Shown: positions 4,941 through 13,161 of the stretch, piece by piece
Layout: each line of letters begins with the position of its first letter
How positions within the stretch are numbered: the first letter of the stretch is position 1
Source: Bacteroidota bacterium
Lineage (GTDB): Bacteria > Bacteroidota > Bacteroidia > Chitinophagales > JADIYW01
NCBI GenBank assembly: GCA_016705125.1
Contig: JADIYW010000028.1
Location: 192,041 to 256,040 of the forward strand
DNA length: 64,000 bases
Reading direction: 5' to 3'
The notes under the pieces: model-generated
The model's database searches: none
The model's input: the letters and a program-made list of their open reading frames with translations, nothing else
What the model was told of the DNA's origin: nothing
Made by a program: the position numbers and the translations under genes

Positions 4941-5129
4941 AAGCAGGGTTATATTTCAGATTTGAGAAATATAGGGTTGAAAATTTTGGGTAAATAAAAG
5001 GAAAAAAGAAATAGTTCAAATTTTTACCTTGTGAAAAATAATATTACTTTTTGCATTATCAACCATAATATTTAGGTTTTATAGCTTAACTTAGCCGACA
5101 GAAATAATATAAACTACTGACATCATAAA

Positions 5130-6698
5130 ATGGCAAAACTGAAGAAAGAAATAAAAGAAAAAGCAATTGAAGTTACCCTTTGGGAAGCAGCTAATAAATT
5201 GAGAGGTAGTGTAGAGCCTGCCGAATATAAACACGTTGTATTAGGACTTGTATTCTTAAAGTTTGCCAGCGACAAGTTTGAAGAACACCGAGCCAAACTC
5301 ATTGCAGAAGGCAAAGAAAAGTATATTGAGAAACCTGAGTTTTATAATATGAGCAATGTGTTTTTCTTGGAAGAAATTTCACGTTGGAGCTACATTGTAA
5401 AAAAGGCAAGACAAAATGATATTGCTTTAATCATTGACACAGCCCTGCACACTATTGAAAAGGACAACAAAGCGTTGAAAGGTGCTTTGCCCGACAATTA
5501 CTTTTCTCGTTTGGGTTTAGATATTACCAAACTGGCTTCTTTGATTAGCGAAATTGACAACATCAATACACTTAAAGACAAAGAACAGGATTTGGTTGGG
5601 CGTGTTTATGAATACTTCCTAAAAAAGTTTGCAATTGCAGAAGGAAAAGGCAAAGGAGAATTCTATACACCAAAAACAATTGTAAGTCTTATTTCAGAAA
5701 TGATTGAACCTTACAAAGGAATTATCTATGACCCTGCTTGTGGTTCGGGTGGTATGTTTGTGCAGTCTATCAAGTTTATTCAAGCACACCACGGAAACCA
5801 AAAAGAAGTTTCCATTTACGGTCAAGAATACACCAAAACTACTTACAAACTGGCAAAGATGAACCTCGCCATCAGAGGGATTTCTGCCAACCTGGGCGAA
5901 AAAGCTGCCGACACTTTTGCAGACGACCAACACAAAGACCTGAAAGCCGATTACATAATGGCAAACCCACCTTTTAACCAAAAAGACTGGCGAGGCGAAA
6001 ATGAATTGATTGACGACCCACGTTGGAGAGGCTATGATGTGCCACCCAAAAGCAACGCCAACTATGGTTGGATTTTGAATATGGTTTCCAAACTTTCAGA
6101 AAACGGAATTGCAGGTTTTATATTGGCAAACGGTGCTTTGAGTGGCGGTGGCGAAGAATACAAAATACGCAGAAAGCTCATTGAAAATAAACTGGTGGAA
6201 GCCATAGTAATTATTCCGAGAGATACTTTTTACACCACCGACATTAGCGTTACGCTTTGGATTTTGAACAAAAACAAAAAAGCAAGAACCGTTGAAATAA
6301 ACGGAAAACAGAAAAACTACCGTGACCGTGAAAGGGAAATTTTGTTTTTGGATTTAAGGCGTTGGGGACAGGATTTTGAAAAGCAGTTTATAGAACTTAC
6401 AGAAGTAGAAATTGCCAAAGTTTCCGAGAACTACCACAACTGGCAACAAACCGACTACAAGAAAACCTACAAAAATGTGCCTGAGTATTGCTACTCTGCA
6501 AGTTTTGAAGAATTAAAGGCCAATGATTTTTCTTTGGTGCCAAGCAAATACATTGAGTTTATTGACCGTGATAGCGAAATAGATTTTGATACCGAAATGA
6601 AACGCATACAAAAGGATTTTAAAACCCTTTTGAAAGAAGAAAAGCAATCGCAAGACCAATTGATTAACGCTTTTAAAATATTGGGCTATGAGTTATAA
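5130..6698 (+). CDS. hsdM: Type I restriction-modification DNA methyltransferase subunit M
   Basis: 522 aa; AdoMet motif I YDPACGSGGMF, catalytic motif IV NPPFNQKDW, N-terminal HsdM helical domain (LWEAANKLRG). Confidence 0.9.
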   Translation: MAKLKKEIKEKAIEVTLWEAANKLRGSVEPAEYKHVVLGLVFLKFASDKFEEHRAKLIAEGKEKYIEKPEFYNMSNVFFLEEISRWSYIVKKARQNDIALIIDTALHTIEKDNKALKGALPDNYFSRLGLDITKLASLISEIDNINTLKDKEQDLVGRVYEYFLKKFAIAEGKGKGEFYTPKTIVSLISEMIEPYKGIIYDPACGSGGMFVQSIKFIQAHHGNQKEVSIYGQEYTKTTYKLAKMNLAIRGISANLGEKAADTFADDQHKDLKADYIMANPPFNQKDWRGENELIDDPRWRGYDVPPKSNANYGWILNMVSKLSENGIAGFILANGALSGGGEEYKIRRKLIENKLVEAIVIIPRDTFYTTDISVTLWILNKNKKARTVEINGKQKNYRDREREILFLDLRRWGQDFEKQFIELTEVEIAKVSENYHNWQQTDYKKTYKNVPEYCYSASFEELKANDFSLVPSKYIEFIDRDSEIDFDTEMKRIQKDFKTLLKEEKQSQDQLINAFKILGYEL

Positions 6699-7818
6699 GC
6701 GTATTGGCGATTATATTCATTTGGTTGATAATCGCAATAAAGATTTAGCGGTTACAAACTTATTGGGTATAAACATTACCAAGAATTTTATGCCTTCGGT
6801 TGCCAATACATCTGAATCGGATTTATCTAAGTACAAAATCATTCAGAAAGGTCAATTCGCATATAGTGCTATGCAAGTGGGCAGAGATGAAACTATCCGT
6901 TTGGCTTTGTATGCAGAAGAAAATCCTGCAATCATTTCTCCCGCATATTTGGTAATTGAAGTAAATGACGAAAATGAATTTTTGCCCGAGTATATGATGA
7001 TGTGGTTTCAAAGACCCGAATCAGATAGATACGGTTGGTTTATTAGCGATAGTAGCGTAAGAGCAAGTTTAGACTGGGAAAGATTTTGTGAAATACAAAT
7101 ACCAATTCCAGAGATTGATGAGCAACGAAAATTTGTTGCACTCTACAATGGCTTACTCACCAACCAAAAAACCTACGCAAATAGTTTGGCTGATTTGCAA
7201 TTGATTTGCGATACATACATTGAAAACCTAATTAAAACCGAAAAGCCTAAAGTGCTTGGAGAATATATTGAGAGAATAATAGATAAAAACACGGATGATA
7301 AATTTAATTCTGTAATAGGAATCAGTGAAAGAAAAGAGTTCAGAGAACCTGCTGGAAAGGTAAATAAGGAGAATTTGTCCAATCATTTAATAGTTCGGAA
7401 AAACGAATTCGGATACATTCCAAGAATGAATCCATTTAAACCATTGGCTGTTGCATTGTCGCATTATGATTATCCCGTTTTGGTTTCACCCTCATATGTT
7501 GCATTTAGAGTAATTGATACTAAAGTGCTCTTACCAGAATTTTTGATGCTCTATTTCAAAAGACCAGCCTTTGACAGATACGCAGCTTTTAATGCTTGGA
7601 GTAGCACACGAGATACTTTTGATTGGCCTGATATGATTATTGTAAAAGTTCCGATTCCCGACATAAAAATTCAAGAAGCCATTGTAACCATTTACCACAC
7701 TTTGGAAACTCGTAAGCGAATCAACGAACAATTGAAAAACACCATTAAACCACTTTGCCCTGTGTTGATGAAAGGTGTGGTGTTGAGTTTTAAAACTGAA
7801 AAGCAATTGTCTCTATGA
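6688..7818 (+). CDS. hsdS: Type I restriction-modification specificity subunit S
   Basis: 376 aa; two target-recognition halves, each followed by a related conserved block (LPEYMMMWFQRPESDRY... / LPEFLMLYFKRPAFDRY...). Overlaps hsdM by 11 nt. Confidence 0.85.
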   Translation: MSYKRIGDYIHLVDNRNKDLAVTNLLGINITKNFMPSVANTSESDLSKYKIIQKGQFAYSAMQVGRDETIRLALYAEENPAIISPAYLVIEVNDENEFLPEYMMMWFQRPESDRYGWFISDSSVRASLDWERFCEIQIPIPEIDEQRKFVALYNGLLTNQKTYANSLADLQLICDTYIENLIKTEKPKVLGEYIERIIDKNTDDKFNSVIGISERKEFREPAGKVNKENLSNHLIVRKNEFGYIPRMNPFKPLAVALSHYDYPVLVSPSYVAFRVIDTKVLLPEFLMLYFKRPAFDRYAAFNAWSSTRDTFDWPDMIIVKVPIPDIKIQEAIVTIYHTLETRKRINEQLKNTIKPLCPVLMKGVVLSFKTEKQLSL

Positions 7819-8938
7819 GTTTAAGTAATCATAAACCCACTCAAGAGGAAATTGTAAATACCTCAATCCCAAATCGACTTTATTGGCACGAGTTTGAAAA
7901 TAATCGTTTTTTTCAAGTAGTACATCAAGACGAAACAGGATTTGAAATAAAACTTGCTCCTAAAACAATGTTTAAGGTTAAATACCTTATAGACAAAGAA
8001 GATATTGAAGGTTTTGAACTGATAAAAGTTAGCAATATTGCAACACAAAAGGTTTCGCTTAGCAAATTCAATTTTGCTCAATTAAAAGCATTCCTTTCTT
8101 TCATAAGCGAAATTGATTTAAAAGGAATTACAGAAAAGCGGCTTAAAATTTTAGATGACCAAGAATTAGATACAGATTCTATTCGTTCTGTTAAAACATT
8201 ATTATCGAAAAAGGGTGGTGCTGAATTAGTAGAAACTTTGATAAACGAAGGCATCATTTCATCAAAGGATATTGTAAACACAGCATTTAGAAAACGAGGG
8301 CTTCAAATATTTTCAGACTTAAAAAACAACTCGGAATGACCTATGCGAAGCAACAGCTTGAAGAAGCACAGTGAGAAGGTTGTAATACTTTTGATCAGTG
8401 GATTTTTGGCTATGGTTTAGATTATCGCTATCAAGAAATTCTGCAAAGAGAAGTTCATCTTTCTGATGCAGGGTGGATGGTTCAAATACTGTAATTGGCG
8501 ATTATCTGTTGGGTGATAACTTCTTTACAACCTTTGTTGAGTTAAAGAAACCTTCAACGCCATTATTTGGAAAAAAAGGGAATCGTTCAAACTCTTGGAA
8601 ACTATCTAATGACTTAATTGAATCCGTTTCTCAAATTCTTGAACATAAAGCTACTGGTTTAATTCGCTTAGATAAACAACAATTCATAAAAGGTGAACCA
8701 GTCAACCAAAAGGCTTACGATTCAAGGGTAATTTTAATCATTGGCAAAGATTTGGAAGGAACTTGAAAATTCAAGCAATACATTAGAAAAAGAGATTAAA
8801 AAGAAAACTTTGGAGTTGTTTAGAATGGATAGCAGAAATGTTGAAATTCTAACTTTTGATGAATTGTATGAAAGAGCTTGTTTTATTGCAGAAGGCGAAA
8901 ATGAGTTAGCAACAAATAATATCAACTATTGTAGATGA
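7815..8938 (+). pseudogene. decayed Shedu-type (DUF4263-like, PD-(D/E)xK) nuclease gene, in at least 4 frame pieces
   Basis: An intact 174-aa N-terminal piece (7815-8339) is followed by WIFGYGLDY... in another frame with an in-frame TGA. Next comes DYLL...FVELKKP...SQILEHK (D..ExK core) at 8473-8766, then a C-terminal ...VEILTFDELYERA piece at 8741-8938. The start overlaps the hsdS stop (ATGA). Confidence 0.5.
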
Positions 8939-9057
8939 TGATGACTTCCCTTTTTAAATATTGGTAAGAAATTCAAAGAAGAAAAATTAGAAAATAGAAT
9001 ACTAAAGTTAACAGAACTGAAAGATTTGCTACTTTACAAATAAGCGACAGTAGAAAA

Positions 9058-9345
9058 TTGAGAGATATGGGAAAAGACCTATTTCAGGATATCAAAAAAA
9101 CCATTGAAGCATTTCAAGAATCATTGAAAGGGCATTTGCCAGCATTAGAGGCAGAGATCAATGATTTGATACATTCGGGAAATAAGGACAAAAACACTAT
9201 TGAAAATACATTAGATACTTTGCTGTCATTGACATATATGGGTGTAGGGAAGGAATTATTTATACGATTATTAGAATATTACAAAACCATAGATGCAGAT
9301 GGTGCATCTTTTTATTGGAACGAATACGATAAAGACAATGAATAA
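9058..9345 (+). CDS. hypothetical small protein (95 aa)
   Basis: Open frame only, with no recognisable motif. TTG start in the track; an ATG lies at 9067. The stop overlaps the RAYT start. Confidence 0.3.
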   Translation: MRDMGKDLFQDIKKTIEAFQESLKGHLPALEAEINDLIHSGNKDKNTIENTLDTLLSLTYMGVGKELFIRLLEYYKTIDADGASFYWNEYDKDNE

Positions 9346-9949
9346 ATACAACCCCAATATCCACCACCGCCAATCCATCCGCCTGAAAGGATATGATTAT
9401 GCGCAAGCGGGTTTATATTTCATTACCATTTGTTGTCAACGTAGGGGCAATCCCTCGTGGTTGCCCTTTGGGGAAATTGAAAATGGGGAAATGAAATTAA
9501 ATGATGCGGGTATGATGGTTGAAAATGAATGGTTGAAATTGCCTAATCGATTTCAAAATATACAATTACACGAATATGTTGTGATGCCAAACCATTTCCA
9601 CGCCATTTTGGAAATCGTAGGGGCGACCCTTGTGGTCGCCCCTGTAAGGGTATCCCTTGTGGATACCCAAAATGATGATACCCAAAATGATGGTGATTTA
9701 CAAAAAGGGCAACCACAAGGGATTGCCCCTACAAAAACCATTGGTGATATGATGGATGCATTTAAATCAATAACAACCGTTGAATATATTCGTGGTATAA
9801 AAACATTGGGTTGGCAACCATTTGATGGTAAATTATGGCAACGCAATTATTGGGAACATATCATACGTGATGAACAATCCTATCAACGCATTTCAGAATA
9901 TATCATCAACAATCCTGCAAAATGGCCAGACGATAAATTTTATACATAA
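9338..9949 (+). CDS. REP-associated tyrosine transposase-like (RAYT, IS200/Y1 HUH family) protein
   Basis: MNKYNPNIHHRQSIRLKGYDY...YFITICC...MPNHFHAILEI (HUH motif)...WQRNYWEHIIRD...YIINNPAKW. I prefer the ATG at 9338 over the track start at 9293. The stop overlaps the hsdR start (TAATG). Confidence 0.7.
   Translation: MNKYNPNIHHRQSIRLKGYDYAQAGLYFITICCQRRGNPSWLPFGEIENGEMKLNDAGMMVENEWLKLPNRFQNIQLHEYVVMPNHFHAILEIVGATLVVAPVRVSLVDTQNDDTQNDGDLQKGQPQGIAPTKTIGDMMDAFKSITTVEYIRGIKTLGWQPFDGKLWQRNYWEHIIRDEQSYQRISEYIINNPAKWPDDKFYT
9441..9732. repeat. four GC-rich hairpins with a GTAG/GTAA 5' prefix and a shared CCCT(T/C)GTGG centre, all inside the RAYT ORF
   Basis: 9441-9466 is gtaggggcaatccctcgtggttgccc. 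9617-9646 is gtag+ggggcgacc/cttgt/ggtcgcccc (9-bp stem). 9648-9668 is gggtatcc/cttgt/ggataccc (8-bp stem). 9707-9732 is the reverse complement of the first copy with one mismatch. Confidence 0.65.
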
Positions 9950-12900
9950 TGAAATTCACCGAAGAAAAATTAGAACGAGCATTTACTGAGTTGTTGGGGC
10001 ACGAAGGCTTCCCTCACTATTTGGGCATTACGATAACTCGTAAGCCAGAAGAAGTATTGATAGAAGAAGATTTACAAAACTTTTTGTTATCTCAATACGC
10101 TGCACAAAGCATTACGGTAAACGAAATCAAATCTATTATTCTTCAACTCAAATCACTTTCTACTTCTGACCTTTACGAAAGCAATAAAACCTTTTTAAAA
10201 ATGCTTTCTGATGGTTTTATTCTCAAAAGAGAAGACCGCAACCAAAAAGACATTTACATTCAACTCATCAATTACGCTGGCTTAAACAAACACCGCCAAC
10301 CCGAAGCAGACCAACTCATTTCTATTTCAAGCGAATATGAATTACAATATTTAAATGACAATAACATTTACAAATTTGTAAACCAATTAGAAATAATTGG
10401 GTCAGAAAAACGCATTCCTGATGGGATTATTTATATTAATGGTTTGCCTTTAGTAGTGTTTGAATTCAAATCTGCCATTCGTGAAGAAGCTACTATTTAT
10501 GATGCTTTCAAGCAACTAACAATTCGTTATCGTAGAGATATTCCCGAGCTGTTTAAATACAATGCTTTTTGTGTTATTAGCGATGGCGTAAACAACAAAT
10601 CAGGTTCATTCTTTGCTCCGTATGAGTTTTTCTATGGTTGGCGAAGAGTAGCAGGTTTGGCAAAAGATGTGGACGGCATCGACAGTATGTTCACACTCAT
10701 TCAGGGAATGTTTCATAAAAACCGTTTGTGTGATATTATCCGCAACTTCATTTACATTCCTGATAGCTCAAAGAAAAACGAAAAAATTGTTTGTCGCTAT
10801 CCGCAATACTATGCTGCAAGAGCATTGTATGACAATATCAAGATAGCCCAAAAGCCCGAAGGAAACGGAAAAGGCGGAACTTACTTTGGTGCTACTGGTT
10901 GCGGAAAGAGTTTCACAATGCTTTATCTCACAAGGTTGTTGATGAAAAGCGAATACTTTGAAAGTCCAACCATTGTTTTAATTACAGATAGAACCGATTT
11001 GGACGACCAACTTTCTGGGCAATTTACCAATGCCAAAAATTTCATTGGCGACAATACGGTGGTTAGTGTAGAGAGCAGAGCCAACCTAAGAGAATTAATT
11101 CAAGGAAGACAAAGCGGTGGCGTTTTCTTAACCACCATTCACAAGTTTACAGAGGACACCCAATTGCTTACCGATAGACCCAATGTGATTTGCATTTCAG
11201 ATGAAGCACACAGAAGCCAAGTAAACCTTGACCAAAAAGTAAAAGTTACCGAGAAAGGCGTTACCAAAACGTATGGCTTCGCCAAATACTTACACGATTC
11301 ATTACCAAATGCCACTTTTGTTGGCTTTACAGGAACGCCAATTGATGCAACGCTTGATGTGTTTGGAAAAGTGGTAGATGCATACACAATGACGGAATCG
11401 GTGAAAGATGAAATCACGGTAAGAATTGTGTATGAAGGCAGAGCAGCAAAAGTGTTGTTGAATAATTCAAAACTCAAAGAGATTGAAGATTATTATGCTA
11501 AGTGTGCTGAGATAGGAAGCAACGAAAATCAGATTGAACAAAGCAAAAAAGAAATGGCACAGATGTATGCCATTATTGGCGACCCTGACCGTTTAAAAGC
11601 AGTTGCCGAAGATTTTGTAAACCATTATGAAAAAAGAGTTTCAGAAGGTTCAACCGTAAAAGGCAAAGCAATGTTTGTGTGCAGCACTCGTGAAATTGCT
11701 TATGAGTTGTATAAAAACATCATTGAAATAAAACCCGAATGGAACGAAATACGAGCAGCCGAAGAAGGTGCAGAACTTACCGACAAAGATAAACGAGAAC
11801 TGAAACCAATTGAACGAATTAAACTCATTGCTACCAGAGGACAAGATGATCCTAAGGAAATGTATGATTTGTTGGGAACAAAAGACCAACGCAAAGAATT
11901 AGACCGACAATTCAAAAACGAAAAATCGAATTTCAAAATCGCTATTGTAGTTGATATGTGGCTCACAGGATTTGATGTTCCTTTCTTAGATAGCATTTAC
12001 ATTGACAAACCGATTCAGCGACACAATTTAATTCAAACCATTTCAAGAGTAAACCGCAAGTTTGAAGGAAAGAATAAAGGTTTGGTAGTAGATTATATCG
12101 GCATCAAAACACAAATGAATTTGGCGTTGAAGCAATACAGCGAAGGCGACAAAGACAATTTCGAAGATATTGCTGAATCCATCATCATTGTAAGAAATCA
12201 TTTAGACCTTTTAGCTAAACTGTTTCACACGTTTGACAATTCAAAATATTTCAAAGGCACAACCATTCAGCAGTTAAACACTTTGAATTTAGCAGCCGAA
12301 TATGTGCAACAATCCAAAGAGTTTGAAACCCGATTTATGGGCTTGGTAAAGCGACTAAAAGCCGCTTATGATATTTGTGCAGGAAGCGAACAATTAACGC
12401 AGTTAGAAAGAGATTACACACATTTCTATTTGGCAGTTCGTTCCATAGTTTTCAAATTGACCAAAGGCAATGCACCCGACACAGCACAGATGAACGCCAA
12501 AGTTCGGGAAATGATAAAAGAAGCTTTGCAAAGTGAAGGAGTAGAAGAAATTTTCAAACTCGGTGACGAAGCAGAAACCGAACAAGACATTTTTGATGAA
12601 GATTATTTGGCGAAGATTGATAAAATCAAATTGCCGAATACCAAAATCAAATTGCTTCAACAGTTATTGGCTAAAGTGATTGCAGAAATCAAAAAAGTTA
12701 ATCGTGTAAAAGGAATTGACTTTACCAAAAAAATGCAAGCCTTGGTTGAACGCTACAACAACGAACGAAAAGAGGATGTTTTAGTAGGTCAGGTATTAGA
12801 AGATTTTGCAGACGAAATCACGAAGTTAATTTTAGAAGTTCACAAAGAATTTTCAGCTGGCGATATCTTAGGAATTGATTTTGAGGAAAAAGCATTCTAC

Positions 12901-13161
12901 GACATTCTGAAAGAATTATGTATAAAATACGACTTTAAATATCCAGACGACAAAATGATTGAACTGGCAAAAGCTGTGAAAGATTTAGTTGATGGACAAG
13001 CAAAATTCCCTGATTGGAACAAACGTGATGATATAAAATCAGCTTTAAAAGTTGGACTAATACTCTTACTTGACGAGTTTGGTTATCCACCAGTAGAAAG
13101 AGACGAAGTGTATGTAGAGATTTTTGAGCAGGCAGAAAACTTTAAAAAAAACCAGAGCTAA
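9949..13161 (+). CDS. hsdR: Type I restriction enzyme R subunit (helicase-nuclease)
   Basis: 1070 aa; N-terminal PD-(D/E)xK (DGIIYINGLPLVVFEFKS), Walker A GATGCGKSFTM, DEAH box ISDEAHRSQ, and motif VI-like QTISRVNR. Confidence 0.92.
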   Translation: MKFTEEKLERAFTELLGHEGFPHYLGITITRKPEEVLIEEDLQNFLLSQYAAQSITVNEIKSIILQLKSLSTSDLYESNKTFLKMLSDGFILKREDRNQKDIYIQLINYAGLNKHRQPEADQLISISSEYELQYLNDNNIYKFVNQLEIIGSEKRIPDGIIYINGLPLVVFEFKSAIREEATIYDAFKQLTIRYRRDIPELFKYNAFCVISDGVNNKSGSFFAPYEFFYGWRRVAGLAKDVDGIDSMFTLIQGMFHKNRLCDIIRNFIYIPDSSKKNEKIVCRYPQYYAARALYDNIKIAQKPEGNGKGGTYFGATGCGKSFTMLYLTRLLMKSEYFESPTIVLITDRTDLDDQLSGQFTNAKNFIGDNTVVSVESRANLRELIQGRQSGGVFLTTIHKFTEDTQLLTDRPNVICISDEAHRSQVNLDQKVKVTEKGVTKTYGFAKYLHDSLPNATFVGFTGTPIDATLDVFGKVVDAYTMTESVKDEITVRIVYEGRAAKVLLNNSKLKEIEDYYAKCAEIGSNENQIEQSKKEMAQMYAIIGDPDRLKAVAEDFVNHYEKRVSEGSTVKGKAMFVCSTREIAYELYKNIIEIKPEWNEIRAAEEGAELTDKDKRELKPIERIKLIATRGQDDPKEMYDLLGTKDQRKELDRQFKNEKSNFKIAIVVDMWLTGFDVPFLDSIYIDKPIQRHNLIQTISRVNRKFEGKNKGLVVDYIGIKTQMNLALKQYSEGDKDNFEDIAESIIIVRNHLDLLAKLFHTFDNSKYFKGTTIQQLNTLNLAAEYVQQSKEFETRFMGLVKRLKAAYDICAGSEQLTQLERDYTHFYLAVRSIVFKLTKGNAPDTAQMNAKVREMIKEALQSEGVEEIFKLGDEAETEQDIFDEDYLAKIDKIKLPNTKIKLLQQLLAKVIAEIKKVNRVKGIDFTKKMQALVERYNNERKEDVLVGQVLEDFADEITKLILEVHKEFSAGDILGIDFEEKAFYDILKELCIKYDFKYPDDKMIELAKAVKDLVDGQAKFPDWNKRDDIKSALKVGLILLLDEFGYPPVERDEVYVEIFEQAENFKKNQS

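Follow-up and report, generated by a model that had tools for sequence, protein, structure and literature searches.

A gene for a REP-associated tyrosine transposase (RAYT, or TnpA_REP) in a Bacteroidota bacterium appears to carry, in frame, four copies of the repetitive extragenic palindromes (REPs) that its own product would recognize. The gene (9338..9949, + strand) encodes a 203-aa protein of the HUH/Y1 type and lies in a stretch of 64,000 nt, hereafter the window, from contig JADIYW010000028.1 of assembly GCA_016705125.1 (contig positions 192,041 to 256,040). REPs are short GTAG-footed hairpins that are bound and cut on single-stranded DNA (ssDNA) by such HUH/Y1 enzymes. We interpret the open reading frame (ORF) as an intact RAYT of TnpA_Y1 subclass 2.4 that has received in-frame copies of its own cognate REPs, and we would give this interpretation, which is based on sequence comparison, a probability of about 0.85. 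The phenomenon itself is already published: subclass 2.4, which is RAYT group 4 of Bertels, was described in 2018 by Quentin, Siguier, Chandler and Fichant (BMC Genomics 19:475; PMC6006769), who called in-frame REP insertions inside tnpA_REP a "unique feature" of this subclass. The gene of the window is another case.

The four hairpins, designated (a) to (d), differ in stem and orientation. REP (a), at 9441-9466 (+), is an imperfect hairpin with the sequence GTAG-GGGCAATCCCTCGTGGTTGCCC and is read RRGNPSWLP in the loop after strand beta1. REP (b), at 9617-9642 (+), lies directly after the HUH strand; it has the structure GTAG-GGGCGACC-CTTGT-GGTCGCCCC, with a perfect stem of 9-10 bp, and is read VGATLVVA. 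REP (c), in tandem with (b) at 9644-9668 (+), has the structure GTAA-GGGTATCC-CTTGT-GGATACCC with an 8-bp stem, and is read VRVSLVD. REP (d), at 9707-9732 (-), matches the reverse complement of (a) at all positions but one; it is read GQPQGIAPT and closes the loop just before helix alphaC. Together, (b) and (d) form an inverted doublet that encloses (c) and a tandem repeat, a REPIN-like composite (9617..9732) that provides residues 94-132 of the protein, in a hypervariable loop. The enclosed repeat is a 15-nt tandem duplication of GATACCCAAAATGAT (2.1 copies; 9662..9692, +). Its start lies within the 3' arm of REP (c), it is translated as DTQND repeats, and homologue P0001 has additional copies.

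An earlier note on this DNA had described four GC-rich hairpins with a shared core inside the coding sequence, and all four were found in place. A repeat search returned them as a four-member family of 22-nt palindromes, located at 9445-9466, 9620-9641 and 9647-9668 on the + strand and at 9707-9728 in inverted orientation. The palindromes are GC-rich, extend over about 22-26 nt and have the common core CCCT(T/C)GTGG; the foot is GTAG in (a), (b) and (d), and GTAA in (c). The core CCCTYGTGG occurs four times in the 64 kb, always within the RAYT ORF, while 0.32 occurrences are expected and none of 100 shuffles reached four. When the window was searched with the full pattern, allowing up to three mismatches, only the four known copies were detected. 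A generic search for GC-rich hairpins on a GT[AG]G foot returned (a), (b) and (d) only over the whole window, and 0-1 hairpins in shuffled windows. The hairpins are not chance occurrences in the window.

Folding of the hairpins as ssDNA yielded -6.7 kcal/mol for (a) (z -2.3), -13.3 kcal/mol for (b) (z -7.6), -7.8 kcal/mol for (c) (z -4.2) and -6.8 kcal/mol for (d) (z -2.9). The composite from (b) to (d) folded at -29.8 kcal/mol (z -6.3), with (b) pairing with (d) in the manner of a REP doublet. That the hairpins are free of stop codons had also been remarked upon. This is true of all four; however, it is unremarkable, since each hairpin is open in five of the six frames and contains a stop solely in the xxG-TAG frame. 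The lack of stops was thus dismissed as evidence.

Assignment of the protein relies on several searches. The Pfam family Y1_Tnp matched with 26.6 bits, above its cut-off of 23, and the top NCBIfam model was REP_Tyr_transpos. The sole relative in the Protein Data Bank is E. coli TnpA_REP (4ER8); detectable similarity covers about 30 residues plus the HUH strand, and the N-terminal part aligns weakly. The HUH motif (H86-F87-H88 within NHFH; 9593..9601, +) aligns with HMH of 4ER8 and is invariant in an alignment of homologues (A1), as is the whole N85-H86-F87-H88 signature. In the stretch WQRNYWEHIIR (9836..9868, +), alignment to 4ER8 pairs W167, Q168, E173, H174 and R177 with E. coli W94, Q95, E100, H101 and R104, whose role is GTAG recognition (cited in PMC6006769). 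RNYWEH had been taken for the C-terminal tyrosine region; this assignment needs correction, as the catalytic tyrosine is Y188, in YIINNP (residues 188-193; 9899..9916, +). The same alignment matches Y188 with E. coli Y115, and N192 with the third metal ligand of the E. coli protein, N119. The protein ends 10 residues past YIINNP. The protein is predicted to bind and cleave hairpins (a) to (d).

Proteins of subclass 2.4 have the HuH motif NH[IFV]H, the W motif WQ and the Y motif YIxNNP. Their median length is 194 aa, and the C-terminus lacks a conserved tail domain; further features are an insert between beta3 and alphaC, variable in both length and sequence, and an insertion of 8 aa where helix alphaB ends. 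Their REPs are of the long canonical type, the base of the stem being made of three G-C pairs (PMC6006769). We place the protein of the window in subclass 2.4 because of its NHFH, WQ and YIINNP motifs, its 203 aa, the presence of such an insert and REPs that start with GTAG-GGG. All the signatures of the subclass that were tested in the sequence (NHFH, WQ, YIINNP and the variable insert) are present. The initial call of a RAYT-type protein was correct, and it gains a subclass from this analysis.

Four insertions within a gene of 612 nt, together with an NCBIfam score under the cut-off (see below), might be viewed as signs of a decaying pseudogene broken up by REP insertions. We consider this improbable. 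The reading frame is unbroken, none of the catalytic or GTAG-recognition residues has been lost, and both ends of the gene overlap its neighbours, the start by 8 nt with the end of the upstream ORF and the stop by 1 nt with the ATG of hsdR. In addition, about 8000 homologues were detected, the top matches being 178-307 aa long; identity in the core is 63-84% across the homologues fetched, and reaches 94-99% in the closest database matches. Two NCBI assemblies, about 98% identical to the window at the DNA level, encode an identical protein. A longer version of the ORF, starting from an ATG at 9293, was disfavoured, as homologues begin with MNKYNP.

Comparison with homologues was used to ask where the hairpin-encoded segments come from. 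Eighty homologous loci (L121-L200) were retrieved with a query made of the hairpin-free C-terminal core only, which keeps the counts of intragenic REPs free of circularity. Alignment A1 shows a strongly conserved core and, after the HUH strand, a hypervariable segment made of repeated VGATLVVA, VRVSLVD, GQPQGIAPT and RATTRVAPT modules. According to the frame and orientation in which it is read, one and the same element family yields VGATLVVA, RGNPSWLP, GQPQGIAPT or ATTRVAPT. Across 67 homologues, the loop that separates the HUH strand from alphaC measures between 15 and 558 nt, and REP-free loops are found in L173 (VSQNQ), in L159 and in a Gemmatimonadales homologue (L078). The earlier note had proposed an alignment of homologues as a check: comparison with REP-free homologues shows the segments encoded by the hairpins to be insertions, and the DNA of homologues has remained palindromic, contrary to the divergent, non-palindromic DNA that the note had named as a refuting outcome.

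The peptides VGATLVVA and GQPQGIAPT are near-invariant in the 36 closest homologues, an observation that might indicate that the peptides themselves are selected and that the palindromes are a by-product. Codon usage argues otherwise. The 23 copies that encode VGATLVVA have just 5 distinct DNA sequences, though every codon is four- or six-fold degenerate, and the major-allele frequency at their third positions is 0.94. Catalytic-motif controls gave 0.52 (YIxNNP), 0.70 (IRLKGYDY), 0.71 (GLYF[IV]T), 0.75 (MPNHFH) and 0.82 (LWQRNY). The codons fixed are GC-rich in genomes of 31-49% GC, where the GC content at third positions of the core is 0.39. Synonymous sites of GQPQGIAPT are also fixed in close homologues, and a GCG→GCA change in one arm of a stem is paired with GTC→GTT in the opposite arm, so that the stem is kept. 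Furthermore, the same DNA gives RGNPSWLP and ATTRVAPT in other frames or orientations and is found outside genes as well, and loops without these peptides occur. Protein-level selection on the loop peptides was rejected on the codon evidence, and we regard it as very improbable. The hairpins are best described as DNA-level elements because they are read in varied frames and orientations, have near-fixed synonymous sites with compensatory stem changes, are missing from some homologues and have extragenic copies.

REP (a) deserves separate consideration. Its site is occupied by a REP-free segment of 29 aa in 33/50 homologues, and REP (a) is present in 4/50 sequences compared (the window plus three homologues). 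Two N-terminal insertion hot spots were detected among homologues. Judged from this distribution, REP (a) is clearly a derived insertion. Taken with their flanks, (a) and (d) make up an inverted repeat of 37 nt with 89% complementarity. Its arms are 218 nt apart and have the HUH motif between them; the match is 25/26 over 26 nt and 28/30 over 30 nt, the latter figure reproducing that of the earlier note. Such an arrangement brings to mind an inversion switch that might turn the gene on or off by flipping the HUH-coding segment. The rarity of (a) among the sequences compared makes a switch extremely improbable, however, as do the single orientation seen in the window and in two related assemblies and the fact that no recombinase gene was noticed beside the locus.

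Hairpins with the same sequence exist outside RAYT genes. The exact 26-mer of (b), GTAGGGGCGACCCTTGTGGTCGCCCC, was found in at least 120 genome-contig stretches (L001-L120), whose hosts have 32-71% GC and, among the matches listed and judged by record titles, belong to at least 11 phyla. Among the matches listed, 7/130 copies of the 26-mer lie in or beside a detectable RAYT homologue. The remaining copies are mostly extragenic, often just past a stop codon, and are often arranged as inverted doublets about 150 nt apart, mingled with sister classes. In Methylobacter/Crenothrix, the 21-mer of (c) stands on a proper GTAG foot, has an inverted copy as partner and lies outside genes; it is also found within other RAYT genes. 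In homologues with flanking REPs, the flanking classes are the same as the intragenic classes, and one locus (L175) has the same doublet inside the gene and again 37 nt downstream. On these matches, hairpins (a) to (d) are kin of bona fide extragenic REPs of other genomes, and the initial description of the hairpins as REP-like was correct. Their status as "own substrate" derives from comparison with other genomes, not with the window's own genome.

REPs are usually described as lineage-specific. The presence of an identical 26-nt REP in at least 11 phyla is at odds with this picture. A literature search for the REP sequence itself returned unrelated primer matches only, and the sequence is absent from the paper by Di Nocera et al. 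(PMC3733652); identity of the 26-mer across phyla appears to be unreported in the literature searched. A separate observation concerns an Acidobacteria metagenome-assembled genome (L004, about 2083-2160), in which a REP doublet of the same family lies in frame in a gene for a Ser/Thr kinase and is read VGATLVVAPAQETRAGTRPAPT. Some copies thus sit within other genes, and colonization by the REP family extends to unrelated coding genes.

The distribution of REPs of this family was quantified around 67 homologous genes. Density was 6.0 per kb in the loop (41/67 loci with at least one copy), 0.30 per kb in the rest of the gene (9/67), 0.19 per kb in the flanks within 1 kb (11/67) and 0.0066 per kb beyond 1 kb (3/67). 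The REP counts published for the subclass were taken within +/-1000 nt, a span that includes the gene itself (PMC6006769). In these low-GC genomes, the RAYT's own loop carries most local REP copies, an observation apparently unreported in the literature searched. A speculative extension, which we hold to be doubtful, is that the RAYT gene is the main REP reservoir in low-GC Bacteroidota and relatives, that its doublet is selected as DNA, and that gene and substrate constitute a portable unit, recruited repeatedly into operons for restriction-modification (R-M). If the reservoir idea were true, the existence of identical 26-nt REPs in at least 11 phyla would follow from the portability of such a unit.

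Several observations weigh against the view that the ORF is an intact RAYT that tolerates copies of its cognate REPs. The REP_Tyr_transpos score is 58.9 bits, under the cut-off of 80 bits, likely because the insert divides the match into two parts. The AlphaFold2 model built from alignment A1 had a mean pLDDT of 45 and a pTM of 0.36, values too poor to place inserts or helices. No extragenic REP copy is found within the 64-kb window, and the arrangement with flanking REPs known as REPtron is absent from it. Lastly, near-fixation of synonymous sites in the hairpins exceeds what simple neutral tolerance would produce and points to either selection on DNA or RNA or continuing renewal of the copies. 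Quentin et al. view the loops as functionally neutral, on the basis of models (PMC6006769).

The near-fixed synonymous sites therefore make it conceivable, though in our view unlikely, that the doublet has a function or acts as a "portable seed". A function in cis might be of three kinds. One is autoregulation, with RAYT binding its own gene or mRNA. Another is that the hairpins give structure to the transcript of the hsd operon in which the gene lies. The third is that they serve as a seed, gene and substrate traveling together upon horizontal transfer. Besides the fixed synonymous sites and the compensatory stem changes, maintenance for a cis function would agree with the concentration of REPs in the loops of low-GC relatives (41/67, compared with 11/67 in 1-kb flanks and 3/67 farther away), with the sharing of the 26-mer by at least 11 phyla and with the patchy distribution of the subclass, which suggests horizontal transfer (PMC6006769). 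A Chloroflexia homologue with 41% protein identity also has the identical 26-mer of (b) in the same loop, farther from the HUH strand. On the other hand, homologues that look functional have REP-free loops (L173, L159 and L078), the number, class and position of REPs vary widely, and repeated re-insertion or gene conversion could equally give rise to the conservation observed.

A T-run was searched for after each of the four hairpins and none was found. The absence of terminator-like sequences gives no support to a function in cis, and a role as intrinsic terminator was ruled out, as no hairpin is followed by a T-run. When the RAYT region was compared with Rfam, the sole match was the cyanobacterial small RNA NsiR9, below threshold (32.8 bits vs a gathering score of 90; E 2e-5). 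The match (9560-9668, +) covers the full length of the model, and REPs (b) and (c) are aligned with the two hairpins at its 3' end. Membership in the NsiR9 family was rejected, and the match reflects the presence of two tandem GC-rich hairpins. Subclass 2.4 is abundant in Cyanobacteria and in Bacteroidetes (PMC6006769). Because the subclass and its REPs are common in cyanobacteria, NsiR9 itself may end in REP-like hairpins.

Returning to the interpretation of the ORF as a RAYT with in-frame cognate REPs, a tentative mechanism can be outlined. REPs (b), (c) and (d) would fill the loop that joins the HUH strand to helix alphaC at the protein surface, with (b) and (d) making a doublet of REPIN type, and the fourth copy, (a), would sit in the loop after strand beta1. 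If the enzyme prefers to act in cis, near its own gene, REPs might build up in and around the gene, and the gene would be a target of its own product. Copies inserted into a permissive loop, and read in any of the five frames without a stop, might survive, tolerated by the protein. Slippage promoted by the hairpins might then lengthen or shorten the loop, and the 15-nt tandem repeat could be an example.

Tandem repeats of this sort are not restricted to the window. Repeats adjacent to REPs consist of a spacer and a half-REP, namely the arm of the hairpin on the downstream side in terms of the coding strand. They were found in the window (9662-9692) and in L046, L122, L001 and L203/L204/L208. 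Examples are DTQND, TVAPND, IAPT and LWLP, and extragenic duplications of CCTTGTGGTCGCCC. In the intragenic cases it is the downstream arm whichever way the REP is oriented, a pattern that suggests slippage at the hairpins with strand asymmetry.

The genomic context of the gene is a type I R-M operon with the order hsdM - hsdS - SduA (Shedu) - 92/95-aa ORF - RAYT - hsdR (window 5100-13161). The hsdR gene, for the restriction subunit, is immediately downstream of RAYT (9949..13161, +). Upstream of RAYT lies the 95-aa ORF (9058..9345, +), which overlaps the RAYT start by 8 nt and has no family match. A homologue with 62% identity is found directly upstream of RAYT in L123, and the ORF may be a conserved partner gene of RAYT. 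With PADLOC, neither RAYT nor the 92-aa ORF fits any defence model. The Shedu gene (SduA, DUF4263), between hsdS and RAYT at about 7799-8956 (+), is a single gene of 385 aa in L201 and L202 (PADLOC 402 bits), and is split in the window into three ORFs (7815-8339, 8473-8766 and 8741-8938). The window differs from the L201/L202 assemblies by about 2% of the DNA, with many small gaps. Two explanations are admitted: either SduA is a genuine frameshifted pseudogene in the window, or the split is caused by indel errors in the assembly.

Association with R-M genes was also detected in roughly one third of the nearest homologues. Same-strand matches to HsdR and/or HsdM are present around RAYT in 26/80 loci, and in 10/31 of the loci with enough flank, in a sample that is biased toward relatives of an R-M-embedded gene. 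HsdR is the immediate downstream neighbour of RAYT in 13/64 loci, and HsdS the immediate upstream neighbour in 13/58. The R-M-embedded state (19/61, window included) is scattered over the RAYT clustering. The associated HsdRs are mostly about 25-30% identical to that of the window, and the RAYT cores are 63-84% identical. This clade of RAYTs thus appears to have been embedded repeatedly between hsdS and hsdR, which is apparently unreported in the literature searched: an association of RAYT with type I R-M is mentioned neither in PMC6006769 nor in the papers returned by a literature search. Within the speculative reading of a portable unit, repeated recruitment would hint at a role of the HUH nuclease in defence or alongside it.

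The RAYT gene of the window offers a clean example of selfish or cognate DNA placed in frame within the gene of the presumed mobilizing enzyme. Taken alone, it rediscovers a published peculiarity of one RAYT subclass and changes little. The comparative data, however, sharpen several questions. One is whether intragenic REPs are neutral passengers or are selected, given that 94% of synonymous sites are fixed and that stems show compensatory changes. Another is how the same 26-mer can be shared across phyla if REPs are usually lineage-specific. A third is raised by the frequent placement of this RAYT clade in type I R-M operons, which bears on the cellular role of domesticated RAYTs. Cross-phylum identity of REPs, constraint at the DNA level and the R-M association are, in our opinion, the parts worth pursuing.

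Comparison with known systems helps to place the gene. Its closest counterpart is subclass 2.4, with which it shares the NHFH, WQ and YIINNP motifs, a length of 203 aa without tail domain, an in-frame REP insert and REPs of the long type. Three differences were found. The copy in the window lacks flanking REPs, and therefore a REPtron, and has no extragenic REP within the 64 kb. The gene has an extra N-terminal REP, whereas published insertions are placed "generally between HuH and Y" (PMC6006769). Furthermore, it sits in a type I R-M operon, a location unmentioned in that paper.

Transposases of the IS200/IS605 family (TnpA_IS200) have the same HUH/Y1 catalytic core and also use hairpin substrates on ssDNA. 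They are characterized by DH[VI]H and Y---Q motifs, a length of about 150 aa, flanking subterminal hairpins and several identical copies, often with tnpB. None of these motifs, nor the length, the flanking hairpins, the multiple copies or tnpB, is seen with the gene of the window. Identity as an IS200/IS605 element was rejected, as the motifs differ, the transpos_IS200 model gives 17 bits vs a cut-off of 55, and neither flanking hairpins nor a second copy are present in the window.

E. coli TnpA_REP and its REPtron were reportedly described by Ton-Hoang and coworkers in 2012. The structure of the protein (4ER8) is from Messing et al. 2012 (PMC3479197). Both proteins share the HUH/Y1 signature, counterparts of W94, Q95, E100, H101, R104, Y115 and N119, and a substrate of the GTAG-footed hairpin type. 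The E. coli protein belongs, however, to subclass 2.2 (DHLH, WE and YIHYNP); its gene is flanked by REPs but has none inside, and extragenic REPs are plentiful.

REPINs are inverted REP doublets (Bertels and Rainey 2011; PMC3116915). The pair formed by (b) and (d), and also that formed by (a) and (d), resemble them in being inverted REPs able to pair into a long hairpin. Classic REPINs are extragenic, exist in hundreds of copies and are linked to RAYTs of groups 2 and 3; in contrast, the doublet described here is translated, is single in the window and has arms of different stem classes.

In-frame palindromes have precedents in other hosts. Rickettsia palindromic elements are said to have been reported by Ogata and coworkers in 2000, and intragenic GTAG/CGTC REPs were described by Di Nocera et al. 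2013 (PMC3733652). Like the hairpins of the window, both kinds of element are short in-frame palindromes, mostly dimers that encode 20-30 residues in loops presumed to be tolerant. Their hosts, however, are unrelated genes such as uvrA, uvrB and dnaE, whereas the host of REPs (a) to (d) is the gene of the enzyme that presumably mobilizes them.

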